The position numbers and the translations under genes were made by a program. 64,000 bases of DNA from a candidate division FCPU426 bacterium (lineage in GTDB: Bacteria > Oederibacteriota > Muellerivitia > Muellerivitales > Muellerivitaceae): contig CAWKAR010000013.1 of assembly GCA_963847625.1 (NCBI GenBank), forward strand, positions 32,001 through 96,000, in the 5' to 3' direction. Within the stretch, counting starts at the first letter, position 1, and each line of letters opens with the position of its first letter. Of this stretch, positions 12,910-64,000 are shown in pieces. The notes under the pieces were generated by a model, which did not search any database, had not been told where the DNA came from, and saw only the letters and a list, made by a program, of their open reading frames with translations.

Positions 12910-12938
12910 AAAAAAAACCGAAGCTTTTAAGAATTCGG
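12910..12938 (-). terminator. Probable intrinsic terminator
   Basis: Minus strand reads CCGAATTCTTAAAAGCTTCGG followed by a T-run. Confidence 0.5.
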
Positions 12939-12962
12939 GCTTTCATCATACCACTAAACTAG

Positions 12963-13093: not shown

Positions 13094-13140
13094 ATAAATT
13101 CCGACAGTAATTTCCATAAGATACTACTACGCCAATACTT

Positions 13141-13296: not shown

Positions 13297-13316
13297 TTAA
13301 CACCTTTTTCAATCTT

Positions 13317-14371: not shown

Positions 14372-14458
14372 CTTGCCTTTGTCGCTATTCATTGATTGAT
14401 CTACCTCCTAAAAATGCGTCCCTTATAATCTCTCGAGATATTAAACTTCATATTTAAA

Positions 14459-43023: not shown

Positions 43024-43446
43024 AAACACCCCCGGCAAAATTTCTTTAAAATTTTTATTTAGTTTATCATTCCCACAGCGATAGTTGGTTTGGTTTTTCA
43101 GGGGCTAAAAAAGCTTCTTTTTTCGTCCAATACAACTCCCAGGGTTGGACATCTATCCATGCTTCGCATTCACAGGAGTAAATCCCCCATGTGTACCCCG
43201 GTAAACAGCATGGGGAAGCCTCTTCCCCATACCTCATCCCGTTTCGAGTCCCAATTTAAACCTGTCCCCGGGCTGGACTCCCTTCGTTTCACTCAGGGCA
43301 AGCTCACTTCAAGCCCGCTATATCACCATTGAAATGCCATTTTAACGCCTCGGTATTAATGTTGGGAATTCTTAGCGTAGTAACATGTGGAAAAGGTAAG
43401 AGGAAAGGATATGAAGAAGGAAATATTACCAAAAAATCAAAAAATA

Positions 43447-44740: not shown

Positions 44741-45946
44741 TTAAAACCTGATCTCGTAATGGGTGCCGAGGTTCCAAAAGTCGTAAATGGCATCAGTAGG
44801 ATTGTTGTTGATGTCGTAACCGTAGTTATGGGCCAAGATCCTGTCATATGACACGAAAAACCTTAACGCGGATGTTTCATCCAAGGATAGTTTCCAGGAT
44901 GGCTCCAAACCAGCCATAAATCCCCCCCCGTTATAGAGGTCGAGGTTGGATATGTTATAACCGTTGGGAAAGACGTATTTCGCGACGCCTGATAAAGTGA
45001 GATCCCCGATGGCGTAACTGGGCGTCAGGTAGAACCTAGGGCCGTAGGAGTACGTGGGTTCGGCGGTGAACTGTCCATTGATCTCCCTTTTACAGGGCAG
45101 GTAAACCTGGCCGCCCAGCTCGAGGGAAAAGGCGGTGGGATTGTTCCATCCATAGGAGGCATTGAAATTAGTCCCCAACTGGAAACTGTTGACCCCGTTC
45201 TCCTGGGTGGGGACCGAGAAAAACGCCGAGGCGCGGATCACCTCCTTGTTCCCGTCCGAAAAAGTCTGGACGTGGTTTGCCGCCACGAAAATGGAATCTC
45301 CCAGCTTCAATTGAGTGCCGGGATTGGGCACCAGGTTCGCGTTCGGGTTGAAGGCGCCCGAGTACATGTAACCCACCCCCGCCCCGAAATCGCCGCCGCC
45401 GGAAGGAAAAGATATTCCGTACAGGGCGCTGATCCCGAAACCACGCCCCTGGTAACGCGTGTCCACAAAGGCCGTGGGGACATTCGCGAGGTATTGCTGA
45501 ACTTCCCAGGATTGGTCCCCCGTCGGCAAGTTAAATGCCACATCCAACAAGGCCGGCAGGTCGAAATTCTTAAAAGACAACTGGCCGCCAAGGACCGTGT
45601 CCGAGACGTTGCTCAGGTTGATCGTTTGGGACGACTCGGTGTAATGCCCGTCCGCGAACTCGGAATTGCCGTAGACCTGAAAATCCTTGGACAAATTCAA
45701 GCTCGCGGCCAAGGGGGTCAGGATTTCCCAACCGCTGAACGGCGGTTGGAAATTGCTGGACCATCCCGCGTATTGGACCCCCAAACCAAGCTGGCCTGCC
45801 GGGGATGCCATTGGGAGAACTAAGAAAGCCAAGACCAAGCAGGCTTTTTTAAGATAACCCACTAAAATCCAAATTATCGGTTTTTCGCTTTTCAAGGCAA
45901 AACCTTTCCCACCTTCATTCAAGTTCTCCGGTCTCACCGATATCAT
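44741..45946 (-). CDS. Predicted outer-membrane beta-barrel protein (module 1)
   Basis: Signal-like hydrophobic stretch, alternating aromatic/Gly strands, C-terminal THYEIRF; paralog of 60855..62048. Confidence 0.65.
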   Translation of the reverse strand: MISVRPENLNEGGKGFALKSEKPIIWILVGYLKKACLVLAFLVLPMASPAGQLGLGVQYAGWSSNFQPPFSGWEILTPLAASLNLSKDFQVYGNSEFADGHYTESSQTINLSNVSDTVLGGQLSFKNFDLPALLDVAFNLPTGDQSWEVQQYLANVPTAFVDTRYQGRGFGISALYGISFPSGGGDFGAGVGYMYSGAFNPNANLVPNPGTQLKLGDSIFVAANHVQTFSDGNKEVIRASAFFSVPTQENGVNSFQLGTNFNASYGWNNPTAFSLELGGQVYLPCKREINGQFTAEPTYSYGPRFYLTPSYAIGDLTLSGVAKYVFPNGYNISNLDLYNGGGFMAGLEPSWKLSLDETSALRFFVSYDRILAHNYGYDINNNPTDAIYDFWNLGTHYEIRF

Positions 45947-45948
45947 CC

Positions 45949-46755
45949 TCAGGGCTTCACGTTGATTTTTATATTCAGTCTACCCCCGCCCTCGACGCCG
46001 GGATCGTTCAGATTATTCTGACCATTGATGATCAAACCCGACCCGAATTGCCCGGTAAGGTCATTTAAAGCCGGGTTGCCGGGTGTACCGTTGCCGTTAC
46101 CCCCTGTCGTCGAACCGTTTCCGTTGCCGCCCCCCGATGAACCATTGCCGTTTCCCCCTGTGGAAGAGCCGCCCCCTGGGACGTTCAACAAAATCCCGCC
46201 CTCAAAATTCAAATCCTGTCCCGGGTTATAAAACTGGAATTTGCCGTTGACGTCCGTGTATACGGTGCCTTCATATACATGCAGGTGGACCCCCTTGTGG
46301 GTGGGGTCGTAAGAAACCGAGAACCGTGTCCCGCGGACCCCGCAGACCACACCGCCAGCCTCGATCTCAAAGGCGGACTTGGCCGAGAACAGCTTGGTCA
46401 CCTTGGCGAGCAGTTGGCCCAGCCTTAGTTTGAGCTTGATGATCTTGTCATTGGGGTTTGGCTTTTTGAGGTTATCAACCCAGAAATCGGTGTTGGGGCT
46501 GATCTTGAGTTCGGACCCGTCGAAGATTTTCAGGGTGGCCTGGGCGTCGGAGCCGGTGACGATACGCTCATTTTCCCCTACTGCGGTGTTCTTTTTAGCC
46601 AGACGGATCATATGCCCCTTGTGGCCCCGGATCTCGATCTTTCCAGTAACGGAGGTGAAGATGGCCTCTACCGGGGTCGATACGGCCGGAGGCGCTGCCA
46701 AACAGTAAATCGGCAGCAAGACCACCAGCGCCGTCAGAAGAATTTTCCTTCTCAT
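45949..46755 (-). CDS. Exported FecR-domain protein (module 1)
   Basis: I.TG.DAQATL.IFDGSELKISPNT, GVVCGVRGTRF.V, VYEGTV; Gly/Asn linker. Confidence 0.88.
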   Translation of the reverse strand: MRRKILLTALVVLLPIYCLAAPPAVSTPVEAIFTSVTGKIEIRGHKGHMIRLAKKNTAVGENERIVTGSDAQATLKIFDGSELKISPNTDFWVDNLKKPNPNDKIIKLKLRLGQLLAKVTKLFSAKSAFEIEAGGVVCGVRGTRFSVSYDPTHKGVHLHVYEGTVYTDVNGKFQFYNPGQDLNFEGGILLNVPGGGSSTGGNGNGSSGGGNGNGSTTGGNGNGTPGNPALNDLTGQFGSGLIINGQNNLNDPGVEGGGRLNIKINVKP

Positions 46756-46794
46756 AAAAACCTCTTCAACTTGAATTGCTGCTTCATAAACCTT

Positions 46795-49700
46795 CTAACG
46801 CGGAGCGAATTTCTGGACCCGCCCGCTGCCGTAATCCGCGACGTAAATGTTTCCCGTGCCATCCACCGCCACACCGGCGGCCCGGTTGAATTGGCCCGGG
46901 GCCGTGCCCGTGGAGCCCCACTCGCTCACTAGGTTGCCGGTTGGGTTGAATTCGACGACCTGGTTATTGGTGCTGTCAGTTGCATAAACATTCCCGGCCT
47001 GGGGGCCGCCCGGCGAGACGGTGATGGCGGTGTAAGTCCCTGAACTTCCATACCATTGGGTGATGGCGGAACCCGCGGCGGTGTAGAGATAAACAGCAAG
47101 GGTCCCATCGGTCACATAAACGGTCGTTCCGGCCGAGTTGACCGCCACCGCGGCGTCACAACAACCCACGTTCCAGGCGGCTTGGTTGGCGCCTGAAGAA
47201 TTGAAGGTTTGAACGGTATAAGAGGCCCCGTTTTCTCCCACATAAACATTGCCGGAGGAATCCACGCCTACACCCGAAACACCATAGAGGTAGCCAGGCA
47301 TTGCATATCCATAAGAGTTGTAATTTCCGAATGTCAGAAGTGCGGTTCCTGAAGGACTGTATTTGTAGATATAATTATTCCCACTGTCGGTGATGTAGAG
47401 ATTGCCCGTGGCGTCCGTAGTCAAAGCTTCCGGCGCCCCGCCCGAAATGGTCCAGGTAGCCGAAGCGGAATAATTAACCCCGTCGGAACTGGTCCAGGCT
47501 TGGATATCCGGAATATAGTAATAACTAGCCTGGAAATTGTAGGAGAGGTAAAGGCTGGTTCCGGCCGAATTGACGGCGATTCCTCCGGTGTTTTGCCAAC
47601 CGTAAATTGTGGAAGAGTCCTGGGCCACAAAGGAAGCAATCGGAGCTACCGGCGTGGGGGTGGATGTGGGTATGTATCCCCCCTGCACCACCAGGCGATA
47701 ATCACCGTCGGAGCCGTTGTAGTTCGAGAAAACGGCTACGTAATAATCCCCGGCCGGGAGAACGTCCGACGTGCCGTTAGGATAGGACATATCACCGCTG
47801 GAATCGATGACCGATATCCCTCCGCCTCCAGTGTCAACGTAGAGATCAAAGCCCACCTGGTCCAGGTAATTTCCATTGTCGAAGCAATCCAGGGATATGT
47901 TGTAAAAGATGTTGTCGGACCCGGCGGTGAAGTGCCAAACATGCTGGGCCCCGACGTAAAACTGCACACTGCCAAGGCCGACCGCTGTCGTACCGCTGGA
48001 AACCATCCCCAGTTCGTCCGCCACAGCGGCAGAAGGATTCGCGGAGCTGGAAATATTAGGTTTAGAGGCTCGAACTGGCGCGACACTTCCAAGATAACCG
48101 CAGGTAGGCTGGAATGGTTCAGGGTCAGGGTGAAGGATCCATATTGGCTTGAATCAGCCCCGTCCACGATCAGGTAATAGGTGCCGGGATTCAAAAGAGG
48201 GGTGATGAAATCCGGATAAGTACAGCCATCCCCGCAGTTTCCGGCGCCCAAGGACAGGGTGGTGGAAGGGTCATCCTGTTTCGTCCTCAAATACGCCGCA
48301 AAGTAGGTATTGATGCCGTTCCCAAAACGGATGTCAAGCTGTTGGGGCTGGTTCAGGGTGAACATGTAAACCAAATCCGGGGCCCCTTTGCCCCAACTGT
48401 TTCCCTCGAGGTCCGTGTAGGAATGCGCGTCAGGCTGTCCGGTCGTATCGCCAATGAGGGTCATTCCGCTGTTGATGTAGGAAGTGATGTCCTGCGCGGG
48501 TTCGGGCGTAGGCGTGGGGGCCAGGGTCCCCTGAATGACCAGGTGATAGTCGGAATCCGAACCGCAGGTATTGGCGTACGCCGCCACATAATAGTCCCCC
48601 GGGTCAAGCCAGTCCGACATTTGGTTCGGGTAGGAGATTTCCGTAGTGGCGTCCACCAATTGGAACCCGCCGGACCCGTTGGGCTGGTAAAGATCCAGGG
48701 CCACCTGGTCCTTCCCCGTTCCGTCATCGTAACAATCGGCGGAGAGGGTGTACTCCCCCGGCGCCGACACGTGGAAAAGCCAGGTATTGACGGGGCTCAA
48801 GTCGTATTTAACTTGACCCGTTCCCACCAAGTCTGACCCAGGTGAGACAATCCCGATATTCCCCGCGTCAGTGAAGAGAGTGTCGTCCACTCCCGGGGTG
48901 ACGGAAGGATTAGGCGTGGAGGTGGGGGTCAAGGCGCAAATGGGATTGAAATTTGAAACGGTCATTGAAAAAGGGCCTACGTACAAAAAGGTGGAATTGT
49001 AAAAGCTATCCACGACAACGGTATAGGTCCCGGGTTGAAGCTGTCCCGTTGTCAGCGAGGTTTGGTAAAAGCCCGAGCAGAGATTCACATCGGAAAGGGT
49101 GGAACCGTTGGGCCCCAGGATATACAGGAGGGGATAATACAAATTAACGTTTGCGGTCAAATTGAAATAAAGCCTTTGCGGGGTAGAAAGATTGAAAGTA
49201 AATGCGGTATCAGGCACCCCCGATCCGTAAATATTAGTCGCCCCGCCGCTGACAACAGTAGCACTGTAGTTGTCCGCGGACAAAGAGGTATCGCCCGTGA
49301 TGGCCTGGCCGCTGTTGATATAGCCCGTGATGTCCATGTTCGGGGCGGCGTAGGTGGGGGTCGGTGTGGGGGGGAAAGTATTGGTGGGAGTGGAGGTGAC
49401 GGTCGGGATTCCCGACACCAGGCCTTGGAGGACTAGGTGGTAATCGGCGTCAGTGCCGCAAGTGTCGGCATAAACAGCCACAATATAGGTGACTCCGGCC
49501 GTCAGCCAATCGGTGGTTTGGGCTGGTTCGACCCCGAACGCGGAGGCATCCATATAGGAAACACTCCCGGCACCCAGGGATTGGTAGAGATCGAAACCTT
49601 CCTGCGACTTCAGAGTGCCATCATCGAAACAATCCAAGGAAACAATGTATTCCCCGTCAGCCTGGACGGTGAAAGCCCAGATGTTCACGTCTCCCATGTT

Positions 49701-52234
49701 TTCTTTCACGTTGCCCTGGGCGACCAAATCCGACCCCACCGAAACGGAACCAAGATAGCCGGCATCGGTATATGTACTATTGTCCACGCCGGGTGTCACA
49801 GAAGGAACCGGCGTGGAAACCGGCGTTAAATGGCAGACAGGATTAAAGGCGGAAAGACTCAAACTGAACGGCCCTTGGTTATAGGGAGGATAGTTCCCGT
49901 AATCGCTGTCCACGACCACGTAATAGGTTCCGGGCTGCAATGCGCCGGTTGCCAAGGAATATTCGGAACCGGAGCCACAGCTCGAATTCAAATCAATCAT
50001 GGTGGAGGGGTCTGTCGGGTTGGTCAGAATGTACAGGAGGGGGGTGTAATAAGTCGCCGATAGGTTGAAATAAAAAGCTTGGGGCGCCGTCAAAGTGAAT
50101 TGGAAGCTGACATCCGGGGAGCCCAAACCGTAGGTGGTAATGGTCGTTGTCGCCATGGAAAAATAGTAGCCCTGGTGGTTATCCGCGGAATTGGCCGTGT
50201 TGCCGGTGAGGGTGACGGTTTGTCCGGCGATGGCGTTATTGACGAGGGAGGTGATGTCCTGGCCTCCCGGCGGTAGCGTCGCGGTCGCGGTGGGCGTGGA
50301 CGTGGGCGTGGGGCTCAAAAGGTAATTCTGAACAACCAGCCGGTAATCACCGTCCGAACCGTCGGCGATGGAATAAACCGCTACGTTATAGGTTCCTTGG
50401 GCCAGGACGTCCGCTATCTGGTCCAAAGGCGTATTGCCGGCCGAGGAATCAATTAGAGTGCCGTAAGAATCGTAAAGGTCCATGGCCACCCGGTCCTTGC
50501 CGGTCCCGTCGTCGAAATTGTCCAGTGAAAGGTTGACTAACGTTCCATCATTGGCAACGGTGAAACTCCATGTATCCACCTCATCCAGGTAATACTTCGC
50601 GTTCCCGGTTCCGGCCAACTGGCCGCCCACCCCAAAGTTCCGAGGCTGGTGGTTTGGGTGAAATAAGTGTCGTCATTGTTGGGCTCGGCTTCGGCGGCCG
50701 GAACGGCCGTGGGTGTCAGCGCGGCGGTGGGTAGGAACGAGGTGATGGACAGCACGAAGGGGCCAAAGTTGCCGGGACTGAAACCATCCACGACCACGTA
50801 ATAGGTACCGGGGGTAAGGAGGCCCGTGGCCAGGGTGGTTTGGAGACTGCCGCCGGCGCAGTATTGGGAGTCGTCCGCGAGATCTACCAGGGTGGAGGAG
50901 GGGTTGTTCGGGTCGGTGCAAAGGTAAAGAACCGTGTCGAAATTGGCGTTACAGAGGTTGAAAAAGAGTCGTTTTTGCCCTGTAAGGGTGAACTTGTAAA
51001 CGAGGTCCGGCGCCCCGGTTCCCCAGTTATCCCCATTGACCATGACGCTATGGCCGTCGGGCTGGCCGCTGGTGTCCCCGGATACCGATGCCCCGTCGAT
51101 ATTACCCGTGATGTCCGGATAGGCGACAGTGGGGGTGGGGGTACCTGAGGGTGTCACTGTTGGGGTTTGGGTTGGAAGCGGGCTTGTAGTGATAGTGGGA
51201 GTCACAGTAAGAGTCGGCGTCGCGGTCGGGGTTTGGGTCAGAACTGGGCTGGTAGTGTTAGTGGGAGTCCCGGTTATAGTCGGTGTCGGGGTGGGTGTAG
51301 CTGTCTGGGTCGGGCTCGAAGTAGGGGTGAGGGTGGAGGTGGGCGTCGACAAGGGCGACAGGCAGGTCCCGTGAATGTCCGCGTTGGTCTGCTCATAACT
51401 GAAATAAGGGACGTTGGTGTTGACCCGGAACCGGAAGGATGGCCCAAAGCTGGCAGAGCCGGGATTGATGACTTGAAGCCAGGCGTGTCCGCCGCCTGCA
51501 AATTGGCAGCAATAAACGTCGGAGGCTTGAAGGATGGTGGTTGCAATCCCAGCCGCTTGTTTCGCCGCCCCCGAAGAGGAGAAATAACCGGCGGATGGAG
51601 CCGCCGCGAAATTCACAAGATTCCCATTTCCAAGATATGCCACGTTGGCGGCACCCTGGGCGTCCCGGATCTGGAAACCTCCCGATGCGGGGTTCAAAAG
51701 GATGTCGTAACCCGTGGAGGTCGCGGTCGTGGCGTCCGCCAAGCTGTCGTTCTCGAAGGAGAAATAGGAACCGTTCGCGAGCAGGGACGTGTCCACCGAA
51801 TAACAGTTGCTCCCCACCGGTCCCAGGTTCACCGTCACGGTTCCGGAACCCGGCGGGTTGAAGTCGAATAGGGCCGCGCCCAGCGCCAGGGGCTGGTGGT
51901 TGGAGGCGTTGTTTAATTGGAGAGCAAGCAAGCGGGAGGTTCCCGGTGGGATGGTGACCGTGAGATCCAGCGAACCCGTATTTCCCGGCGCGCTGAAGGG
52001 CCCGGCGGTTCCTGATACCGGGGACATTCCCGGTCCCGTTATCCGGTACAGGATTTCATTGCTCGCCGCGCCTAAAAGATTCGCTGAAAGTTCCTTGCCC
52101 GCGGGGATGGAAATGGAAAGGGTCGAACCCTGGTAAGGCGCCACAGGGGCGGGGGAATGGTTGGTACAGCCCGTATAAACGAGCAAACCCGCCAAGAAAG
52201 AAAAAGATACGGGAACCAGGAAGCGTTTTTGCAT
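46795..52234 (-). CDS. Giant modular lipoprotein 1 (~1813 aa after repairing two 1-nt frameshifts at ~50630 and ~48116): N-domain, TP linker, four PPC-like domain pairs, C-terminal NHL propeller
   Basis: MQKRF...LVYTGC lipobox; ORFs 50537..52327, 47736..50630 and 46795..48024 join into continuous repeat units. Confidence 0.8.
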
Positions 52235-52429
52235 TTTCCAGTTCTTTTCAATAAAGATAACGCAGGTTGAACAATGGCCATTACAGGGAAGGATAAAGCA
52301 CGGATGAACTTTTCCCTTAAACGTCAATATTTTGATTGAAAATAGTCCTAAAAATCAAGAAATAAGCTTGTTGAGTATTTAAGTAAAAGACAATAACGGT
52401 TAATCGAAAAAAGTGGGTTAAAAATAGCC

Positions 52430-54679
52430 CTACTTTGTTTTCATGACGAAAACGCCGTCCCAATCCGGGGGGAATTGTTCCTTTTCCAGGATTCTGCAAC
52501 GCTCCAGGAATATCCTCGCCGGGCCGTCATGGGAGTCCAGTTCCAAGCAGTTCCGGAAACACTGGGAGGCTTCCTTCCATTTTTGCGCGCGGTAGAGTCC
52601 GAGCCCTTCCTCGAAAACCTTTGCCTTCATTTCCTTCATACCCGCGGCCTTCAAGCGGTGGTCCACCAGCTCGTAGATGCGGATGGGGCGGGACTTACCC
52701 TTCACCCTCAGCAAGTCCAACTCGCGGCAAAGCATGTCGTCCTTGACCTGGACGTAGGTAGTCTCGCCAATGATGATCTCAACCCCGTATTCCTTGGTGG
52801 CTCCCTCCAGGCGGCTTCCCAGGTTCACCGCATCCCCGATCAAAGTGTAGTTCTTGATGGATTCCGAACCCACGAAACCCACCACCATGTTTCCCGTATT
52901 CAGGCCGATGCCGATCTCCAGTTTTTCCTTCCCTTCCATCTCCCACTTGGGGTGGAGAAGGGATTTCAGCAGGTCCACCATCCCCAGGGCGGTGCTACAG
53001 GCCCGGTAGGCATGGTCCTTTTGCTCAGTGGGCGCCCCCCAGAAGGCCATGACCGCGTCGCCGATGTACTTGTCCAGGGTGCCCTCGGTCTGGAAGATCA
53101 GGTGAGTCATCTGGGTCAGGTACTCGTTGAGCACAGCTACGACTTCCGCGGGCGTATGCTTCTCGGAATAAGTGGTGAATCCCCGGATGTCTGCGAACAT
53201 GACCGTGAGGTCCTTCTCTTCGCCACCCAGCTCGATGCCCGCCGGTAGTTTCAGGATTTCCTCCACGACCTTCGGCGTCACCATGCTCTGGAATGTCTGC
53301 TTGAGGTAACGGCTGTATTTGACCTCGGTGCGGAACTTGTAGGTGGTGAGGGCCGTGAATGTCAGGGCCAGGGAAGCGAGGGGATAAACCAGGTTGATCA
53401 CGTCGCCCAGGTAATTAAAGCAGAGGCAGGCCGCCGCGAAGTAGGCGATTAAAAGAAAGAAAAACCCGATGGTTCCCTGCATGGGGGTAAGCCTTGGGAT
53501 CAGGAACCACATCAGGAGCCCGAGGACCAGGATCAACAGGTAGGTCCAATAATCCGGGAGAAGCTTCAGGAAACTGCCCGAGTACACGTTCTCCAGGATG
53601 TTGGCGTTCATTTCCACCCCGGAGGAGTTGTGGGTATAGGGAGTGGGTCTCAGGTCGAATAAGCCCGTGGCCGTGGCGCCGATGATGACGGCGGCTCCCT
53701 TCAAGACCCCCGGTTCGAGCTTGCCGGAAAGCACGTCGCATACGGAGTAAGTTGGGAAAGTCCCCTCGGGGCCGCAATAATTGATGAGCGCGAAGTTATC
53801 CTCCAAAACCGGTATTTTTCTTCCCGCCACTTCGGCATAGTCGCCCGAATGGATCTGAATGGGCTTCAAGTCACCCATCAGGTAGCGGGCCACCTGCAGG
53901 GAAAGATGGGGGATGAGCTTTCCCTGGTAGGAGAACGCGGTGGGATAGTAGCGGTAAATGCCGTCCGAAAAGGGGAAACAACGCGTATGCCCGGAATCCC
54001 GCACGTTGTTTTGGAGCGCAGGGATCGAGAGAAGAAGGGATTGGGAGGGCACGAAATCCTGGATAAATCCCCCGAACAGCTCGGCCTCGGTCATATGCAG
54101 GGATTCGGGGTTGGGGCTTCTCCCCTCTTTTCCGGTGATGAAAGGCTCGATGGGAAGGAACACGTTCCCGGCATCCTTTATAGCTTTGGCGAACTCCATG
54201 TCCCCGTTTTGGTTTTCCGCCAGCCGGTGGAGGTCGGCGAGGATTTTTTCGCGGATCTTTTGGGCCGGCGGGGAATCCCCCGGCAAGGTGGAGTCCAGAA
54301 GGGACTTCAATTGGCCGATCATCTTTCCCTGGGAACGTTCCGGCTCGGGGAAAAATACGTCATAAAAGACGCATTTCACGCCGTCTTCCTTCAAGCGGCG
54401 GATCAACTGCGCCTGAAGCGCCCGGGGCCACGGCCATTGGCCGACTTCCCTCAAGCTCTGTTCGTCCACGGCCAGGACCTTGATGGGGGCTTGGGGCGTG
54501 CGGTAACCCCTCACGGCGAAACGAAAATCGATGGATTTGTTTTCCAGGGCTTGGAATAAGGGAATATGGTTATTGAATAAGTTGCAGGCGGAAAGGAGGA
54601 GAATAACCCCCAGGGTCAACCAAAGTGAGGTGGACCGGCGGTAATGGACCTTGACTTCTCGGGCTTGGGCCTCGGGCAT
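52430..54679 (-). CDS. CHASE2-domain class III adenylate cyclase
   Basis: GQWPWPRA (CHASE2), GATATGLFDLRPTP, three TMs, MFADIRGFT, DKYIGDAVMAFWG, YTLIGDAVNLGSRLEG (Lys/Thr pair typical of ATP specificity), terminal WDGV. Confidence 0.95.
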   Translation of the reverse strand: MPEAQAREVKVHYRRSTSLWLTLGVILLLSACNLFNNHIPLFQALENKSIDFRFAVRGYRTPQAPIKVLAVDEQSLREVGQWPWPRALQAQLIRRLKEDGVKCVFYDVFFPEPERSQGKMIGQLKSLLDSTLPGDSPPAQKIREKILADLHRLAENQNGDMEFAKAIKDAGNVFLPIEPFITGKEGRSPNPESLHMTEAELFGGFIQDFVPSQSLLLSIPALQNNVRDSGHTRCFPFSDGIYRYYPTAFSYQGKLIPHLSLQVARYLMGDLKPIQIHSGDYAEVAGRKIPVLEDNFALINYCGPEGTFPTYSVCDVLSGKLEPGVLKGAAVIIGATATGLFDLRPTPYTHNSSGVEMNANILENVYSGSFLKLLPDYWTYLLILVLGLLMWFLIPRLTPMQGTIGFFFLLIAYFAAACLCFNYLGDVINLVYPLASLALTFTALTTYKFRTEVKYSRYLKQTFQSMVTPKVVEEILKLPAGIELGGEEKDLTVMFADIRGFTTYSEKHTPAEVVAVLNEYLTQMTHLIFQTEGTLDKYIGDAVMAFWGAPTEQKDHAYRACSTALGMVDLLKSLLHPKWEMEGKEKLEIGIGLNTGNMVVGFVGSESIKNYTLIGDAVNLGSRLEGATKEYGVEIIIGETTYVQVKDDMLCRELDLLRVKGKSRPIRIYELVDHRLKAAGMKEMKAKVFEEGLGLYRAQKWKEASQCFRNCLELDSHDGPARIFLERCRILEKEQFPPDWDGVFVMKTK

Positions 54680-54685
54680 GGCGGT

Positions 54686-54714
54686 ATTCTAAGCGCGAAA
54701 ACCATCAACAGCAA
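54686..54714 (-). promoter_or_regulatory. Promoter for a probable leaderless cyclase mRNA
   Basis: TTGCTG-17-TAGAAT, then 6 nt to the ATG at 54679; no SD. Confidence 0.55.
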
Positions 54715-57700
54715 ACGGTTTTCGAGGATTTTGAATCTTGAATTTAAAATCAAGGATGAATGAAGCAATAAAATTAGAACTTAAATGAATGCAATCAACG
54801 TTGAGGCAACAGTCCACCTTCAATCCGCGTCACTGCCCTGAATTCAAATTGTTTCGAAGGAATTTAAGCCATCCAGATGTCGCCGCGACTGATCCGAAAC
54901 CAAAATATTTTCGGAATATTTTAGGGGGGAATGTTATAAACGCTGAGGTTCCGGAACGTGATATCACCTTGATCGGCCTGGAAGCCGAAGTTGCCCGTAG
55001 GATAGGCACTCAAGTTGGGATCCGTGACGGTCAACTGCCAGTCAGGTTCCCCCGCGCCGGTTTGCCATTCTTTCGCCATGATCTGGTCCCCATAAATGCG
55101 CACCCGGTAGGAATACCAGGTGTTGCGGGCGATACAGGGAATGGTGGCCTGGGTTGCGGTGAGGTTATTCCCGTCGGTCCAGGTGGTTTGGCTGCATGCC
55201 GCGCCATTGGGCGCCATCGTATCGTAGAAAAGCCTGCTGGTTCCGACGCAGGTGTCGCTGAGTTGCCATTGGTCGCCCCGGATCATGAAATACTGCTGAC
55301 AGTTAGCGTAACGGGCGATAAAAACGGTGTCGTCGTCGCCCGAATAAGCCGAGAGAGGAAGGCAGGCCTCGTAGTAGAATTCGACGTCCGGCCCGATCGT
55401 GACGTTGGAAATGATTTGCGGATACTGGCTTACCGCCGAGGAATTGTATGGGCCATAATTAAGCCCCATACACCCGCCATTCTCCGCGCGGATGTACCAG
55501 GCAGCCCCGGGCCAGCCATAAGTCGCGCCGCTGCTGGCCGTCCCAGCGTTGGTCCAACCCGTGGGCATGCTGGTCATCGGGTAGGAATACAGTAAAACAG
55601 GGGTAGGTGTCGGGGTGGCAGTAAAGCAAGGCCGGACCACTGAAATTGCGTTCGAAATTATATTGTTGCCACCATAGGCCACAGAAGCAGTGTTGATTAA
55701 CATTTGGCACTGATTGTTTTGCCAATTAGAATCCACAAAATTCGTGTACATGGTAACGCAATTGCTTCCTCCGCCAAATTCGCTCCAATAAATTTGATTG
55801 CCATTAACAAAGGGTTGACCCCCTCCATTGGTGTAACAGGAAGTCGGCTCAAAGCCCCAACAATTAAATGAAAATGTCGTTCCACTCTGGTTGTCTGTGA
55901 CTGTAACCCCTCCGGTTGACACAGGGCCGCCGTCGTTGCATGCCACGATTGAGAAAGTGGCGAACATATTGTTGGAGCTATCGGTCACCGGTGTGCCGTA
56001 TTGGGCGCAGGTGATAGAAAAGTTTGGCGGTCCAGCCAAAGTCGAGGGAGGAGGGATCGTGGTTGCCTGCCGGAAGAAAAGAGCTCCGAATGAGTTGGCT
56101 GGGTTATAAGCTCCGGAACTGTCCGAGGAAATGAACGGGACTTGACTGCCGCTAACAGGATTGAAGAGGGGTTGGCCCCAACAGCATAAACCGGAGGTGG
56201 TGTTAACCACTGTCGGGTTGCCCCAACCGCTGTCATCATAGTTGGTCGCGTACCAATTGCTCGCGGGGGGAGTAGTGGGGTTCCCGATACTGATGTAATC
56301 CATCTTAACGCCGCCGCTCCCGCTGGTGATTTCGGAATGCAGGCCATTGGAATAGGTGATATCCAAGTCCCAGGAACTGTAAACGTTGTTGGTGGCCGTG
56401 TTTTGGGTATAAATGGCGATATTAACTTGGCTCCCGGTTAATAGAGTTGGGTTTATGAAAATACAACCCGGTGGGCAGGTACCGCTGCCATCCCAGTTGC
56501 AATAAGTGATTTCGCCTAAGTAAACCCCACCTATGTAAACTTGTGACCAGTCGTCACTATTCATGCAAATCTGCGCGTGGGTTATCGTGGTGGATATGGG
56601 AGTCGGGGTAGAAGTGACTGTGGCAGTGGGCGATATCGTTCCTGTTGGGGTGTCCGTAACCGTGGGCGTGTTCACCGGTGGATTCGTTTGGATAACCAAG
56701 CGGTAATCAGAACTGTTTTCTGATTGGTTGGCCGCATAAACCACAACCGTGTACTGCTGCTGGGTTAAAGACACACCCAAGGCATCCAACGGGAAATATC
56801 CAAGAGAATTCGCAACCAGGTTGGTATTCGAATCGTAAAGGTCGTACCTCACCCGCGACCTATGCGATCCGTCATCGAAACAGTCCAGCGAGATCGACGC
56901 GGGGCCGGCCGTGGCAGGCGTGAAAGTCCAGGAATTGGTGTATTGCAAATAATAATCAACATGGCCCACGCCCACCAAATCGGAGTAGTAATTGCCGAGG
57001 GTTCCCAAGTCGGTGGTTCCCAACGGGCTCGCGAGCGTCACCGGGGTGGAAACAGGCGTCAGTACGCAGTTTGGCGTGAAAGTACTCAGGCAAAGGGTAA
57101 AAGGCCCGCGATCGGGCCAACTTTCACCAATATAACTCCCATCCACGATTAAGTAATAAGTTCCAGGTTGTAAAACACCAGTCACCAACCCGGATCCGTA
57201 GGGTTGTCCGCAATAATCGCATTCGGTATCGTAAGCCAAGGTAGTGGAAGGATTTTCCGGATCGGTCCTGACATAGATACAGGAGTAGTTGGTTGTCCCG
57301 CAAAGGTTGATAAAGAGGCTCTTGGCGGTGTCAAGCGTGAACTTGTAGACGATGTCCGGTGATCCCGATCCGTTATACAGGTTCCAATAAGAACTGTCGT
57401 ACTGGGAATGATTGTCCGGCATGCCGGTGGTATCGCCATTAATGCAAGCCCCGTCGATGTTGGCCGTGATGTCCATGATCCCAGGAGTCGGAGTGGGCGT
57501 TGCCGTTGGGCTAGGAGTGGATGTATTAATTGGCGTGAGGGTGGATGTGCTCGTGGGAGTAGCGGTATAGGTCGGTGTAAGAGTGGGCGTGTTGCAAATG
57601 ACCGTGATGGAAATGTTGTTGCTGGTAACCGGCCCCCCTCCCGGCCAACTGGCTATTCCCCTGTCGGTGACAACCTGGCAATAATCGCTGGAAATCGCGC

Positions 57701-58058
57701 TATAAGAACCCACGTTGAAATCGATCGGGACACAATCACCGCCCGGAAGGCTGAGAACCTGCCAACTGAGGTTCGGGTATGTCGTACCTACCGGATTGAT
57801 CGTAACCGGATCACTTCCCACCATCACGGTCCATTGGCTGTAATGAAGTCCTTGGAAGGACCATAATAGTGGATTGGTGATATCGTCGGTCACCGTGACT
57901 CCAGTAACCGTCCCCGCTCCCGCCGCATTGCAAACCATGATGGTCATGGCAATGGCGCTGGCGTCGGAGTAATTAGAGGTGGGGCCGCCGGTGGTCTTGG
58001 TCAAGCTGATATTTGGCGACCCCGGCGTAAGTGTATTTGTCACTATCGGTGTAAGAGT

Positions 58059-58394
58059 GGGCGTAGTACTTGGCGTGACCGTGGATGTATTTGTGGGCGA
58101 TGCCGTCCCGGTAAGTGTGTTCGTCGGGGTGGTGGTCGAGGTAAAAGAAAGGGTAGAGGTGGAAGTTGATGTCGAAGTGAATGTCCTGGTAAAAGTGGGA
58201 GTGGACGTATTGGTCGGCGTTGAAGCGGGCGTAGTACTTGGCGTGACCGTGGATGTATTTGTGGGCGATGCCGTCCCGGTAAGTGTGTTCGTCGGGGTGG
58301 TGGTCGAGGTAAAAGAAAGGGTGGAGGTGGAAGTTGATGTCGAAGTGAATGTCCTGGTAAAAGTGGGAGTGGACGTATTGGTCGGCGTTGAAGT
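58059..58394 (-). repeat. Near-perfect 168-bp (56-aa) tandem duplication in the Thr/Pro linker
   Basis: GCGTAGTACTTGGCGTGACC occurs at 58061 and 58229; copies are identical except GTAGAG/GTGGAG. Confidence 0.9.
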
Positions 58395-59732
58395 GGGCGT
58401 AACAGTTGGCGTGAAAGTGCGTGTGTTAGTGGGCGATGCCGTCCCAGTCAGAGTGTTCGTCGGTGTGCGGGTCGGTGTAGAAGTTGGAGTTAAGGTGTAG
58501 GTGGGAGTGGATGTCGAAGTGAATGTCCTGGTAAAAGTGATGGTAGGTGTGTTCGTGGGCGATACCGTCCCGGTCAATGTATTCGTCGGGGTGAGTGTCG
58601 GAGTGGCCGTAGGCGTAGATGTGGAAGTGTTGGTTGGTATCGGGCTGTTCGTAGAGGTGGGTTGGACGGTAAGGGTTGCCGTTGGGCTACTGGTCGGGGT
58701 CAAGGTCTGTGTAGGGGTTGGAACCGGGCTGTTCGTAAAGGTGGGTTGGATGGTAAGGGTCGGCGTTGGGCTGTCGGTCGGCGTCGGGATGAACGTAGCG
58801 GTCATGGTAGGGCTCAAAATCGGGGGAAAGGTAGGAGTGGGGACTGGGGTCAAGCACATGCCGGCCAAATCCGCTGCGGTGGGGTCATAGGCGCAATAAG
58901 GGAGGGTCTTGTTGGCCCGGAACCGGAACAGGGGTCCTTTGGAAAGGGTCCCAAAGGGCTGGTTGGGGTTGACGATTTGGACCCAGGCATAGCCGCCGGC
59001 CGCGCCCAGCCCCAGGCTGACGCAGTAAACATCACCGGCTTGTAAAAAGGCGGGTGACGCGAATGCCGCCGTTTGCTTAGCGGTTGCAGAGGAGGAAACG
59101 AAGGCCGTGGGTACAGGCGCCGAAGCGAAATTCACCAGGTCCCCGTTGCCCAGAAAAGCGACCCCGTTGTTGCCCAGCGCCGTGATTTGAAAACCCCCGG
59201 CCATGCTCGTAACGGCAATGTCATCAGAGCCTGAACCCGAACTGGATAAGACATCGTTTTGGAAGGAGAAATATGCGTTCCCGCCAAAAGACGAGGTATC
59301 CACCGTATAGCAGTTCCTCACCACCGAACCCATGGTCACCCAAACATTGCTCACGCTTCCCGCGGCTATGTCCATCTGGACGGCGCCCAAGGCCAAAGGC
59401 TGGTGATTGACCGCGTCGTTCAACTGGAAAGCCATCAGGCGGGACGGGCCCTGGGGAACGGTGATGGCAACATCCACCTCGCCGGATTGTGAACTGGTGT
59501 TGAAAGGCCCGGCGACACCGGTAACCGCGGCCATTTTCGGCCCGGTCACCTTGTACAGGATTTCGTTGAGGGTGACCCCCAACAGGCTGGCCTTGACCTC
59601 CTTGGTGATAGGGATGGAAAGGGATAAAGCCATGCCTTTGGCGGGCGCCACCGGCGAGGTGGGCGAAGATTTCCCCCGGCATCCGCCATTGGCGAAAATC
59701 CCTAAAACCAAGCCGATGGTTGATATAAGGAT

Positions 59733-60787
59733 CCCGAGTTCCATAAGTAAGTGCAACACTTAGTGTCTGAAGAAGGCCGCATGAATAGGATATGCGGCTA
59801 TGAAAAAGAAATACAAGCATTTAAGCGTTGAAGAAAGAGATCATTTATCCGTCTTGAAAGGAAAGGGTCTTAGCCTTCGAGCAATTTCACGCGCCTTGAA
59901 GAGGTCTCCTTCCACCCTCTCCAGGGAACTCAAGCGCAATGCTCCCCCTATCCGTTCTGGTTATTATCTTTCTCATCGAGCCCATCAACGGTATGTTGAC
60001 CGCAACCAACAACGAGCACGCCGTTTACGCCTGAAAACAAAACGAATTCGTGCCTACGTCCGTCGTCAATTGAAACGAGGCTGGTCTCCAGAACTCATTT
60101 CAGGTCGATTAGGTCACCTACGGCCTAAGCAAACCATTGGTCCTGAAGCTATCTATCAGTGGGTTTATGCTGAAGCCACTGAGCTGATTCCTTGCCTAGT
60201 TCGACACCACCGGCGACGATTCTCATTTGGCCATAGCCGTAAGCACGCCAAAAACCATATCCCAGGCCGTGTTTCCATCGATAAGCGCTCCGAGATCGCC
60301 AATCAACGCAAGCAATTCGGCCATTGGGAAACCGACACCATGGTCTCTCGTCAGAGTAAAGTGGCTATGCGGGCTCTCGTCGAGCGTCAAAGCCGTTTTT
60401 CCAAGTTGGGAAAGCTCAAACGAAAGACCGCTCGCCAAATGAGTCATAGCCTCAACCGCGCTTTATGCCGCTTCCCTCAAGACGCCCGCCTGAGTCTGAC
60501 CTATGACAACGGAACCGAAAACACCAACCACTTGGAAACCAACCACGTGCTTGGTACAAAATCCTTTTTCTGCGCCCCTTTCCACAGTTGGGAAAAAGGT
60601 ACGGTGGAAAATACTATCGGTCTTGTCCGCCGCCATTTGCCTAAAAAGACTGATCTTGCTAAAGTGTCCTTCAAAGAATTCAGGACCATAGAAAGATGGC
60701 TCAATAACAGGCCCAGGAAATGTTTGGGCTTTAAAACTCCGGCGGAAGTCTTCCGGCGAAGTGTTGCACTTACTCCGTGAATTCGGC
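59733..60787 (+). mobile_element. IS30-family insertion sequence, copy 2 (1055 bp)
   Basis: Same IRs as copy 1; 3-bp direct repeat GAT at 59730-59732 and 60788-60790. Confidence 0.95.
59800..60780 (+). CDS. IS30-family DDE transposase
   Basis: Two amino-acid differences from copy 1 (KKFRA vs KEFRT). Confidence 0.97.
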   Translation: MKKKYKHLSVEERDHLSVLKGKGLSLRAISRALKRSPSTLSRELKRNAPPIRSGYYLSHRAHQRYVDRNQQRARRLRLKTKRIRAYVRRQLKRGWSPELISGRLGHLRPKQTIGPEAIYQWVYAEATELIPCLVRHHRRRFSFGHSRKHAKNHIPGRVSIDKRSEIANQRKQFGHWETDTMVSRQSKVAMRALVERQSRFSKLGKLKRKTARQMSHSLNRALCRFPQDARLSLTYDNGTENTNHLETNHVLGTKSFFCAPFHSWEKGTVENTIGLVRRHLPKKTDLAKVSFKEFRTIERWLNNRPRKCLGFKTPAEVFRRSVALTP

Positions 60788-60854
60788 GATGAAAATTTTT
60801 ACTTTCAAATTGATCTTCCCTTGGCCCCTTGTTTCCGGCAACTCGAAAGGGCTG

Positions 60855-62048
60855 TTAAAGTTTCAATTCGTAATCCGTCCCGAAGGTGAAACGGTTGTAA
60901 ATGATGTCCGTGCGGCTTCCCGCGGCATCAAATCCCGCCTCAAAAGCGGTGATGTTGTCGAAGGACGCTTTAAATTTGAGCGCGGATGTATGGCTCAACC
61001 GCACCCGGAAGGACGGTTCCAACCCCAATAAAACCCCGCCCCCGTCATAAAAAAGGTCCGTATTCGGATAGCCATTGGGAAGCACATATTTGGCCCTGGC
61101 CGCAAGGGTTAGATTTCCGAATGAGTAACTGGGCGTCAGGTAGAAGCGCGGACCCAGGGAGGAATGGGACTCGGCCATCAATTGCCCGTTCACCAGGGTC
61201 TGGGACGTGAAGAAATACTGGCCGCCCGCTTCGAACGAAAAGGCCGAGGGGTTCTGCCAGCCATAGGAAGCGTTGATATTGGGGCCCATCTGCAGAAGGT
61301 TGGTGCCGTTCGCTTGGGTGGGAAGGAAGTAAAAAGCCGACAATCGGATGACATCACTTTGGCCGGTTCCATGGGCGGTAACCCGGTTGAGGGACAAAAA
61401 TACGGAATCCCCCAGTTTCAATTGCTCCGCCGGAACCCCCAGGCCGTAATTCGGGTTGAAGGCGCCGGAATACATGTAGCCGACCGCGGCCCCGTACTGG
61501 GCCTGCCCAGCCGGCAGGGCGATTCCGTACAGCGTGCTCATCCCGAAACCTCTTCCCCGGTAGCGGCTGTCTATAAAATCGTAAGGAAGGTTGGATGCCG
61601 AAGCCTTTGTCTCCCAGGTGGGATCACCGGTGGGCAGATTGAAGCCGATGTTCAAGGCCGAAGGCAGGGAAAAGGCGTTGAACCCCATCTGCAGTCCCGC
61701 TACCGTGTCGGTAAAACCGGTCAGGCTCTGGGTTTGCGTGTTCTTGAGCGAATCGGTATATCGCCCGTTCCCGAATTCGGTCTGGGCGTATAGTTGAACG
61801 CCCTTCCAAGGGAACAGGCTCAAGGTGAAAGGGGTCCAAATTTCCCGGCCGTTGAAGGGCTGGACATAGTTGGAATCCCAGGATTCGTACTCGCCGCCCA
61901 CGTTAAGCCGGCAAAAGTAACTTGCGTTTGGTTTCTGAGGCGCTTCGTCCGATAAAACTTTTTCCGGCAAAACCAACAGGGCCGCCAGGGCAAAAACCCA
62001 GCAAGTCATCCGCCGTTTGATTTGGGTTTGGCTCCAAATGCGGTTCAA
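60855..62048 (-). CDS. Predicted outer-membrane beta-barrel protein (module 2)
   Basis: Signal peptide; shares FNLPTGD, RY.GRGFG, VGYMYSGAFNPN, QLKLGDS and GPRFYLTPSY with 44741..45946; ends TDYELKL. Confidence 0.65.
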   Translation of the reverse strand: MNRIWSQTQIKRRMTCWVFALAALLVLPEKVLSDEAPQKPNASYFCRLNVGGEYESWDSNYVQPFNGREIWTPFTLSLFPWKGVQLYAQTEFGNGRYTDSLKNTQTQSLTGFTDTVAGLQMGFNAFSLPSALNIGFNLPTGDPTWETKASASNLPYDFIDSRYRGRGFGMSTLYGIALPAGQAQYGAAVGYMYSGAFNPNYGLGVPAEQLKLGDSVFLSLNRVTAHGTGQSDVIRLSAFYFLPTQANGTNLLQMGPNINASYGWQNPSAFSFEAGGQYFFTSQTLVNGQLMAESHSSLGPRFYLTPSYSFGNLTLAARAKYVLPNGYPNTDLFYDGGGVLLGLEPSFRVRLSHTSALKFKASFDNITAFEAGFDAAGSRTDIIYNRFTFGTDYELKL

Positions 62049-63193
62049 GGCACCGTCTCCTTGGGGGGAACGACCAAGTGGATGTTCAATGTTTGCTGCG
62101 CGGAATTGAGGCAGTTGTCGTTATTAACCAGGATTCCACTGGTGAACTGGTTGTTCAAATCAGTCAAAGCCTCATTGGTTTCCAAGTTTGGAGCCGTAAT
62201 GACCTGCTCTTGCGGATTCAAGGGGGAAACTGGCGGCTGGATGACAGGTTCCACCGCCGGAACCGCATTGCCTTGGCCCGGGGGGGCTGTAGCGTTGCCG
62301 CTTCCGGGAGCGGCAACTACGGAAGTTGCGCCGCCGGCTAAATTTTCGATTGTAGCCCCGCCTGATTGGATTTGTCCCGTGGCGTTGGGGCCTCCTCCAA
62401 CGGCACCAACCACGGAGGTTACGCCTTCCGTGTTTCCGGTTGCAGGTCCGCCGGATTGGGTTTGACCGTTGCCGTTATTATTCCCTCCAACTGCGCCAAC
62501 CACGGAGGTTGCACCGCCTCCCGTGTTTCCGGTCGTAGGCCCGCCGGATTGATTCTGGCCGGTTCCGTTGTTGTTTCCACCTGTTTCGCCTTTAGGATTT
62601 TTATGTAAACTGCCCGGGCCTTCCCCTTCGCGGATCATCCGGCCGTTCTGGAAAATGCATTCATGGCCCGCCGGGCACAACTGGGTGACTCCCCCGGAAC
62701 TCGCGGCAACGACGCCATCCAATACATTCAACCTCATCCAACCGGTCTTTTGGTCGCACTCCATCGTGAATTCGGTTCCCCTGACCCCGCAAACCACGCC
62801 ACCCGCCTCGATTTCGAAGCTGGAATGGGCGGAAAAAAGCTGGCGCACTTTCACCAGGGCTTTTCCAAAACCCAACCGCATAAAAATATTTTTTTCCTCT
62901 TTAAAGGCGTGCAAGGTGGCGAGGGTAAGCCGGCTGTTAGCCATCAATTCCAGGGTGGATTCGTCGAATAACTGCAATGTCGCCTTGGAGGCCCGCCGCA
63001 CGATGATGGTTTCGCCCTGGTAAGCTTTGGCGCCTGTATGGGCCCTTCGAACCGAGCCCATCCCGTTTTGAACGGTTACCGTTCCCTTTACGGATAGGAA
63101 AACAGCTTCCCGTTCGGGTGGGTCGGCGGCTGAAACTGCGTTGAACATGCCGGAGCACAGAAAAAGAAAAGAAATAAGAAAGGGTTTATTCAT
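62045..63193 (-). CDS. Exported FecR-domain protein (module 2) with Gly/Asn/Thr repeats
   Basis: Start MNKPFLISF at 63193; FEIEAGGVVCGVRGTEF; three ~31-aa repeats. Confidence 0.85.
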   Translation of the reverse strand: MNKPFLISFLFLCSGMFNAVSAADPPEREAVFLSVKGTVTVQNGMGSVRRAHTGAKAYQGETIIVRRASKATLQLFDESTLELMANSRLTLATLHAFKEEKNIFMRLGFGKALVKVRQLFSAHSSFEIEAGGVVCGVRGTEFTMECDQKTGWMRLNVLDGVVAASSGGVTQLCPAGHECIFQNGRMIREGEGPGSLHKNPKGETGGNNNGTGQNQSGGPTTGNTGGGATSVVGAVGGNNNGNGQTQSGGPATGNTEGVTSVVGAVGGGPNATGQIQSGGATIENLAGGATSVVAAPGSGNATAPPGQGNAVPAVEPVIQPPVSPLNPQEQVITAPNLETNEALTDLNNQFTSGILVNNDNCLNSAQQTLNIHLVVPPKETVP

Positions 63194-63401: not shown

Positions 63402-64000
63402 TCAGGAAGACGCGCTCCGGTAACGCTTCAATCCTTTTTTCCAGATCCAGGTCGTAAAGGCGAAGAAAGCCAGCCCCAAGGCGAACCCGTAGACGATCCA
63501 CCCGCCTTTGAGCTTGTTGATCAAAACTCCCGCGGGGAAGTTGGATACGATGAGCATGGGGACCAGAGTCAAAAGCAGACGCCGTAGGAGCCAGGGGTAG
63601 ATCTCCCCGGGATATCGGGAAAACTGGCCGAACTGCCAGTAAAGCTCCAGCAGGTTGCTGGAGCGCCCGATCCAGAAGGTCCAGACCGACAGGGTGAACA
63701 GCATGGTGTAATAAATGAGGATGCTGTTGACCACCAGGGCCCCGAAAAGCAGCACTTCCCCAAATCCTACCACGGTGCCGCCCTGCGCCAAGGCAAAGGC
63801 GATCATGGCGAAACCCACCAGGCTCGTGCTGATGGAGGCGTAGTCCGTGTAACGAAGCGAGACGAGGAACTGGGTGTTAATAGGCTTGATGAGGTTGAAA
63901 TCCAGGTCCCCCTGGCGGATTTGGTCGGTCAAGCGCATGCAGTTGTCGTAAAAGAAGGCCTCGAAAAGCTGGGTAATAACGTTGTTGGTTCCCAGGAGCA
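63402..64000 (-). CDS. ABC-2 type permease (DUF990-like); 5' end lies outside the window
   Basis: IRQGDLDFNLIKPINTQF, RYPGEIYP, WKKGLKRYRSASS. Confidence 0.85.
   Translation of the reverse strand, partial: LLGTNNVITQLFEAFFYDNCMRLTDQIRQGDLDFNLIKPINTQFLVSLRYTDYASISTSLVGFAMIAFALAQGGTVVGFGEVLLFGALVVNSILIYYTMLFTLSVWTFWIGRSSNLLELYWQFGQFSRYPGEIYPWLLRRLLLTLVPMLIVSNFPAGVLINKLKGGWIVYGFALGLAFFAFTTWIWKKGLKRYRSASS

Follow-up and report, generated by a model that had tools for sequence, protein, structure and literature searches.

A candidate split, multi-input relative of the NsrA/CyaK relay at a CHASE2 adenylate cyclase locus of an FCPU426 bacterium

Introduction

Relays that carry a signal from outside the cell to cyclic AMP (cAMP) through CHASE2 adenylate cyclases have been described in S. 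meliloti, where both NsrA and the CHASE2 cyclase CyaK are required for signal perception according to the available text of PMC7529298 and PMC13001267, and a FecR-domain target of Clr is dispensable for perception according to that of PMC5498481. In the available part of PMC4439547, MtxA is placed ahead of a CHASE2 cyclase. A cluster in Campylobacterota, consisting of a CHASE2 cyclase, a phosphodiesterase, a FecR protein of the outer membrane and a protein with TPRs, is proposed to form a single pathway in the accessible sections of PMC9239204, and the Burkholderia BiofilmReg operon combines a LysM-FecR protein with a CHASE2 histidine kinase in those of PMC5192318, which also describe the target sensed by CHASE2 domains as unknown. 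Here we report a locus within a 64,000-nucleotide stretch of DNA (the window; positions 32001-96000 of contig C13 of G000, the FCPU426 bacterium genome under study), in which one CHASE2 class III adenylate cyclase is accompanied by two modules, each consisting of a FecR-domain protein, a predicted outer-membrane beta-barrel and a lipoprotein. Our analysis suggests that this locus probably, though by no means assuredly, represents the outside-to-cAMP relay of NsrA and CyaK in a split, multi-input form, in which several surface inputs serve mostly one cyclase.

Results

The locus shares the FecR, barrel and CHASE2 components of NsrA/CyaK

The gene touching cyaK on S. meliloti pSymB encodes a 1,190-amino-acid (aa) protein with a FecR domain (residues 66-160), TPRs and a weak barrel match, and the FecR profile matched the FecR domain of this protein with a probability of 93.7. 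We take this gene to be nsrA, since its size and the position of its barrel match those in PMC7529298. The initial annotation of the window had regarded the architecture as undescribed, which was overstated; the protein beside cyaK carries FecR, so that FecR, barrel and CHASE2 together are the NsrA/CyaK design, and the three-part relay is already known in kind. The two systems have in common a class III CHASE2 cyclase with intact catalytic residues, a linked secreted FecR without an anti-sigma part and a linked outer-membrane barrel. In contrast to the single chain of FecR, TPR and barrel in NsrA, however, two genes here encode FecR and barrel separately, the window contains no TPR, and a cognate lipoprotein with variable passengers is added. 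Whereas one receptor serves three cyclases in S. meliloti (CyaK and CyaD1/D2), several modules occur here per cyclase. In Shinella and Paracoccus, a CHASE2 cyclase is accompanied by a TPR-barrel gene and by a FecR gene whose product has a weak TbpB/fHbp-like match at its C-terminus, and within the phylum of G000 itself FecR and a CHASE2 cyclase occur with other barrels at two loci (L089 and L095). The recurrence of FecR and CHASE2 cyclase with other barrels in Sinorhizobium, Shinella, Paracoccus and these two loci supports the split relay. As a separate observation, the Paracoccus and Shinella FecR proteins (L043:3868-5835 and L042:3278-5827, respectively) are possible Slam-exported FecR tethers.

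Other known systems are less similar. Unlike the Campylobacterota cluster, the locus showed no phosphodiesterase or TPR gene, and it has a separate unannotated barrel and giant lipoproteins. The Burkholderia operon, as far as the accessible text of PMC5192318 goes, likewise sets a secreted FecR-domain protein next to a CHASE2 sensor, but its output is a kinase, its FecR is tethered by LysM and a barrel is not described in that text. The periplasmic FecR domain (PF04773) is common to FecI/FecR/FecA systems, but here it comes without an anti-sigma domain, a linked extracytoplasmic function (ECF) sigma factor or a linked TonB-dependent receptor. The retention module of RTX adhesins (MpIBP RIN, 5IX9; LapA-like) is similar in that a chain held by an outer-membrane pore ends on the inner side in a periplasmic domain; in our case, however, there is an N-terminal signal/anchor and a short tail rather than a giant adhesin, and a separate lipoprotein bears the adhesin-like domains. 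Slam proteins of type 11 secretion combine TPRs with a 14-stranded barrel, whereas the barrel studied here has 16 predicted strands and lacks TPRs, and a profile comparison with the TPR-barrel of Paracoccus gave no match (E 0.2).

The cyclase and the FecR proteins

The cyclase is the sole CHASE2 gene found in the genome (1 match). Residues D497, K537, D541, D616, N619 and R623, which we take to be the catalytic and ATP-specificity positions, were invariant in 38 of 38 aligned cyclases, consistent with an active, ATP-specific enzyme. A comparison of the CHASE2 region with PDB sequences gave nothing below E 0.15. The genome contains 11 matches to the cyclic nucleotide (cNMP)-binding domain. A scan with a Crp-box pattern gave 5 matches compared to 17.7 expected, none of them in the locus, and scans for promoters and terminators were at chance level.

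Each FecR protein begins with one hydrophobic segment (residues 5-23), DUF4880, the family of FecR N-termini, was unmatched in the genome, sigma70_r2 was unmatched on the contig, and the nearest TonB-dependent barrel lies about 48 kb away, beyond the window. The initial annotation had thus correctly described FecR proteins with a signal-like start rather than an anti-sigma domain, and neither a linked ECF sigma factor nor a TonB-dependent receptor in the window. FecR2 starts with an N-terminal signal/anchor, and a linker rich in Gly and Asn separates its FecR domain from a conserved C-terminal tail of about 45 aa. The only PDB sequence matched by the FecR profile was 5IX9 (E 2.7e-6 across 65 positions, in the first half of the FecR domain), which in the available text of PMC5550230 is the periplasmic domain holding a 1.5-MDa Marinomonas RTX adhesin plugged in its pore. 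This likeness is in keeping with a plug on a tether, able to report pull, and would equally support an anchoring function; a literature search returned no paper joining the retention module and FecR.

Predicted folds of the barrel and the lipoprotein head

The AlphaFold2 model of barrel 1 had a predicted local distance difference test (pLDDT) score of 86.1 and a predicted template modeling (pTM) score of 0.79, and the DSSP list of this model gave a count of 16 long strands. Fold searches with this model retrieved porin-type and other outer-membrane barrels (Z up to 17.7, at most 14% identity), in agreement with the earlier proposal that the 400-aa proteins fold as barrels, although no hit stood out by which a specific barrel family could be named. 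Its neighbors in the ESM Atlas were mostly unnamed, with one cluster showing 16% Phenol_MetA_deg, and a Pfam scan found no family for barrel 1, barrel 2 or lipoprotein 2.

The lipoproteins share a head of about 270 aa that follows an invariant Gly-Cys lipobox and was modeled as two domains (pLDDT 84). Residues 34-141 resemble pilotins and the N-domains of type V pilins (Z 8.5-10.3 for both groups; 10.3 for the pilotin of PDB 2yjl, presumably ExsB), and the second domain (residues 140-280) is similar to proteins of the HmuY family (Z 8.9-9.9 over about 120 aligned residues, root-mean-square deviation about 3, 8-19% identity). We read these as likeness of fold only; the head gave no match among PDB sequences and had no named family in the ESM Atlas (best 0.79). 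Behind the head, lipoprotein 1 carries a Pro/Thr linker, PPC-like repeats and a C-terminal NHL propeller, and the body of lipoprotein 2 (about 1,600 aa) consists of the lipobox Cys, the conserved head, Pro/Thr linkers, PPC-like repeats and passenger domains. Copies of these passengers, 50-80% identical, are found in further secreted proteins of the genome and in its head-less lipoproteins, and the passengers are therefore drawn from a common pool. Among 52 head-bearing open reading frames (ORFs), 31 encode the head only (237-374 aa, a few of them cut by contig ends) and 21 range from 528 to more than 4,326 aa, with passengers that are NHL, LRR, malectin or unassigned, along with weak 3-keto-disaccharide-hydrolase-like matches; as judged from these ORFs, the constant feature is the head and not giant size. 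A TbpB/fHbp-like C-terminal barrel, as carried by Slam cargo, had no Pfam match at E 1e-4 in 22 family lipoprotein ORFs, with one stray match at E 0.14.

Several observations concern related surface proteins. A large family of secreted Pro/Thr-stalked proteins shares domains with lipoprotein 2 (L187-L193 and L197), and its complete members end in a conserved C-terminal beta-domain that resembles a sorting signal. Head-less NHL-propeller proteins, one of them a Pro/Thr-linker lipoprotein, are encoded at 41746-43038 and 612-2699 of the window and have many paralogues in the genome. Large DUF2298, TMEM260-like and PMT_2 membrane proteins (3050-16687 and 28481-30910) are possible O-glycosylation machinery for Pro/Thr-linker proteins.

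Head and FecR tail pair with the barrel

As the initial annotation had proposed, each of the three components of one module has a paralogue in the other, with identities across aligned domains of 51% for the barrels, 49% for the lipoprotein heads and 36% for the FecR domains. Its further idea of cognate pairs, barrel with head and barrel with FecR tail, is strongly indicated by identity correlations among modules from related genomes, a sampling by which significance is overstated. Barrel and head identities in 39 modules correlated with a rho of 0.86, and the best-matching paralogue agreed in 396 of 474 comparisons (198 expected). For the last 62 residues of FecR and the barrel, rho was 0.77 (partial 0.75 given CHASE2) and agreement was 452/606 compared to 235 expected, whereas the FecR domain showed a partial correlation with the barrel of 0.04 and agreement of 310/606. 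Between a divergent barrel class and the rest, barrels are 23% and tails 17% identical, while FecR domains are 45% identical. This pattern is as expected of a two-ended adaptor, in which a class-specific tail would serve the barrel and a common domain would serve a shared target, which the pattern itself does not name. Co-evolution of the FecR domain with CHASE2 was considered as well and rejected as evidence, the partial correlation being 0.30 in 20 genomes and 0.01-0.04 in an 18-genome subset with an ATP-binding cassette (ABC) protein as proxy. The same barrel family also includes fusions that echo the FecR-TPR-barrel chain of NsrA. In one, FecR is joined to the barrel (P0008, also locus L063; FecR scored 21.5 bits, short of the 24-bit cut-off), and in three others TPRs are (P0003, P0004 and P0019).

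Conservation of the module in the family and the phylum

Conservation was assessed in 24 other genomes of the family and in 16 genomes outside it. Within the family, the barrel was present in 24/24, CHASE2 in 23/24 and the head in 22/24 genomes; outside, the barrel was found in 2/16 and the head query in 0/16. The usual gene order is an ABC trio, cyclase, FecR, barrel and short lipoprotein. Directly after the cyclase (23 genomes) we found FecR in 15, a head-bearing lipoprotein in 4, a contig end in 2 and no linked module gene in 2, so that a module gene immediately follows in 19 of 23 and the linkage anticipated by the initial annotation is conserved. Among 54 fetched barrel ORFs, FecR lies directly upstream in 48 and a lipoprotein directly downstream in 41, many of the misses being contig ends or cases in which the lipoprotein lies upstream of FecR as in module 1. 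Family genomes have 1-4 barrel genes and mostly one CHASE2 cyclase. The claim that two inputs share one output is therefore borne out in its general form, several modules per genome facing mostly one cyclase, but the layout of two modules around one cyclase is specific to G000. In relatives, 18 loci extend as far as the ABC gene, and none of them has module 2 between ABC genes and cyclase; the modules most closely related to it lie apart from the cyclase, and in G000, the second module appears from these comparisons to have moved in between the ABC genes and the cyclase.

A third FecR and barrel pair is present in the genome without a lipoprotein (contig C57). This pair (G000:C57:16050-20773; also L064) is followed by a membrane-fused spermidine-synthase-like gene and is kept in a congeneric genome. 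Elsewhere in the phylum, a second type of CHASE2 cyclase (L085, L096 and L100) has no FecR behind it, its place being taken by a small secreted protein, which is SH3-like in L096, and by a lipoprotein of the M48 peptidase type. CHASE2-unlinked modules at L078, L080, L052, L074 and L077 have other class III cyclases (FHA-GAF, HAMP and dCache) at a distance of a few kb or less, a closeness that may be chance, the genome having about ten cyclase matches.

Distant homologues of the barrel

Searches yielded 419 barrel homologues at E up to 0.001, and a locus search seeded with barrel 1 alone gave no confirmed relative. The contexts of distant homologues were examined for one subfamily, represented by an alignment of 16 of 150 listed proteins, and the counts cover that subfamily only. 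It matched the barrel in a profile-profile comparison (probability 99.8) and was traced to 80 loci, mostly from Desulfobacterota and Nitrospirota. In the 77 loci with a called barrel ORF, a CsgG-like gene lies at most 3 ORFs upstream in 63, a Ser/Thr kinase is present in 32, and a lipobox-like ORF is adjacent in 18. A comparison of the head with lipoproteins beside the distant barrels (E 0.017, probability 2.7) is a lead only. These loci (L106-L186) contain a conserved unannotated cluster consisting of a CsgG-like protein with a variable tail, often a variable lipoprotein, and the barrel homologue, to which a small CsgG-like lipoprotein, a thioredoxin-TPR-CsgG protein, the Ser/Thr kinase and a trypsin-like protease are added; an LR..TS motif occurs in 27 of 63 of the CsgG-like proteins.

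Layout of the locus and condition of the lipoprotein genes

The ORF coordinates in Table 1 bear out seven co-oriented genes in the order given by the initial annotation, FecR2, barrel 2, lipoprotein 2, cyclase, lipoprotein 1, FecR1 and barrel 1. The stop of FecR2 overlaps the start of the barrel 2 ORF.

Table 1. Coordinates of the cyclase locus and adjoining features in the window
Feature	Position	Strand	Description
Barrel 1	44741-45946	-	Predicted 16-stranded outer-membrane beta-barrel with C-terminal aromatic residue
FecR1	45949-46755	-	Pfam FecR, E 1.2e-13; signal/anchor, FecR domain, Gly/Asn linker, conserved tail
Lipoprotein 1	46795-52234	-	About 1,810 aa if read through; frameshifts at ~50630 and ~48115
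CHASE2 class III adenylate cyclase	52430-54679	-	749 aa; Pfam CHASE2, E 2.9e-49; Pfam Guanylate_cyc, E 1.4e-28
Lipoprotein 2 as called	54921-59759	-	Body 54921-59732
IS30-family element	59733-60787	+	HTH_38 and rve; within the signal-peptide coding region of lipoprotein 2
Native first ~7 codons of lipoprotein 2	60788-60808	-	TTG after a purine-rich stretch; severed by the insertion sequence
Barrel 2	60855-62048	-	Paralogue of barrel 1; signal peptide; no Pfam match
FecR2	62045-63193	-	Pfam FecR, E 1.5e-11
ABC-2 permease, 3' part	63402-64000	-	Pfam ABC2_membrane_6; final gene of ABC exporter trio

An insertion sequence (IS) in lipoprotein 2 and two frameshifts in lipoprotein 1 had been overlooked in the initial annotation. 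The IS has an HTH_38 and integrase-core transposase (ORF 59800-60780, + strand), terminal repeats and a short, 3-bp target duplication flanking it, as in 8 of 10 IS30 copies with the same ends, and because it inserted in the first codons, the called start of lipoprotein 2 (59759) sits in the IS end. The native start is the TTG at about 60808, behind a purine-rich stretch resembling a ribosome-binding site and about 50 bases past the barrel 2 stop. The genome contains 38 near-full IS30 copies at 97% identity or more, a recent expansion, and a second in-window copy lies at 13384-14364.

Lipoprotein 1 is spread over three reading frames (50537-52327, 47736-50630 and 46795-48024), and both breaks fall at short homopolymer runs. 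In one 266-bp contig from the public run X1, which differs at 3 other positions, the frame is maintained by an additional base at 48115. This favors an assembly error or a strain difference as the origin of that break; the X1 comparison table listed no insertion at the second break. Lipoprotein 1 is probably intact in the population and frameshifted in the assembly. A broadly error-rich assembly was not supported by the conserved genes, as the 2 loci flagged for frameshifts among 67 both look by eye like opposite-strand shadow ORFs, leaving 0 of 65, and a split giant lipoprotein in G024 was rejected as a natural parallel because its break is an N gap. Since both lipoprotein genes are broken as assembled, the G000 locus is a poor bench specimen, and the head-only cassettes of relatives are better ones.

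Discussion

The split relay that we favor builds on genes, folds, linkage and a pairing of head and FecR tail with the barrel that are observed directly or strongly indicated. From these we infer a topology, a contact between FecR and CHASE2, a surface ligand and a direction of signaling. The head would dock on the barrel and, where a Pro/Thr-stalked passenger is present (NHL propeller, LRR, malectin or PPC-like repeats), hold it at the surface, and the FecR tail would insert into the barrel from the periplasmic side. Surface binding or pull would move the tail and thereby alter the way in which FecR, as a domain on a tether, engages CHASE2 in the periplasm; this altered engagement would switch cAMP synthesis, and Crp-like proteins would read the cAMP.

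Several results weigh against this interpretation. NsrA gave no detectable profile match to the smaller barrel of the locus (hhalign E 0.12, against a single-sequence template), two family genomes (G002 and G006) have no module beside the cyclase, and the correlation between FecR domain and CHASE2 is not robust. The ABC trio is as conserved as the module (an ABC gene accompanies the cyclase at 18 of 20 loci, and the remaining 2 loci end close to it), and NAD-kinase and riboflavin-type genes, identified from their translations, are often kept too; the kin are not independent, and part of the family synteny may be ancestral inertia. Other families of the phylum contributed 18 CHASE2 loci, and only 4 of the retrieved stretches had a FecR match. 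Among the distant barrel loci, moreover, only 1 of 80 has FecR and CHASE2, and the distant barrels adjoin variable lipoproteins without a cyclase. The barrel is thus not bound to cAMP and seems to serve as a general docking site, with a periplasmic partner and an output that vary by lineage.

The occurrence of variable lipoproteins beside cyclase-free barrels would also suit a device for surface display or anchoring, in which the barrel exports or holds the lipoprotein in a Slam-like manner, FecR acts as a periplasmic plug for retention or helps in assembly, and the cyclase is either just co-regulated with these parts or governs display from inside the cell. The match of the FecR profile to the Marinomonas retention plug as its only solved structure, the TPR-barrel fusions, the pilotin-like and type V pilin-like first domain of the head, and head-bearing genes that outnumber barrels in several genomes all point in that direction. 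Yet 31 of the 52 head-bearing ORFs have nothing but the head to display, head-less lipoproteins of the genome carry the same passengers, so that the head is unlike a general export tag, and FecR accompanies CHASE2 across unrelated barrels; we consider display unlikely. The HmuY-like second domain of the head, the resemblance of the barrel to porins, and the malectin and weak 3-keto-disaccharide-hydrolase-like passengers could instead indicate substrate capture and uptake, with a HmuY/SusD-like lid lipoprotein passing a small ligand or glycan through an open barrel, CHASE2 sensing the ligand and FecR as an accessory. We regard this as quite improbable: Z scores below 10 may reflect likeness of fold only, no TonB system is linked, and the class-specific FecR tail and the FecR-barrel fusions would be left unexplained.

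The cyclase could also be an accidental ancestral neighbor of a trio that works with another output or with none. The equally well linked ABC trio is in keeping with this, as is the location of most modules, which are unlinked from CHASE2 and in some cases near FHA-GAF, HAMP or dCache cyclases. However, FecR, barrel and CHASE2 recur independently in several phyla (see above and PMC9239204), and extra modules came to lie next to the cyclase on separate occasions in G000, G010 and G012, which makes mere ancestral proximity highly improbable in our judgment. Overall, these considerations leave the split relay as the interpretation that we prefer.

Literature searches returned no paper on the barrel, the head or the multi-module layout, and none combining CHASE2, outer membrane, lipoprotein and adenylate cyclase; the NsrA literature and its supplements may already treat the FecR domain and its distribution. 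What is new here is the co-divergence of barrel and head, the FecR tail that tracks the barrel, the head folds with optional passengers, the match of FecR to the RTX plug and the CsgG-like partner of distant barrels. On a more speculative note, the 16-stranded barrel might be the hub of an undescribed, reusable envelope antenna with a cognate variable lipoprotein and a tail-tied adaptor, in which a swap of adaptor changes the output (FecR-CHASE2 here; in Desulfobacterota and Nitrospirota a CsgG-like protein, with a Ser/Thr kinase often close by). FecR would then be a protein ligand of CHASE2 that reports pull on lipoproteins of up to 4,000+ residues, so that a lineage of soil and peat would possess a multiplexed (mechano)sensor of surface contact, an extension that we put forward tentatively and hold to be possible but doubtful.

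A barrel family that had lacked annotation is defined here, as is a lipoprotein head by which an uncultured lineage carries giant surface proteins. The relay is split into small parts with natural paralogue classes, so swaps of cognate and non-cognate parts can probe the head-barrel, tail-barrel and FecR-CHASE2 joints, and because the tail follows the barrel and the FecR domain does not, the sequence signal names the interfaces. How NsrA and CyaK communicate across the periplasm is left unexplained in the available portions of the S. meliloti literature cited, and the split family offers a handle on this communication.

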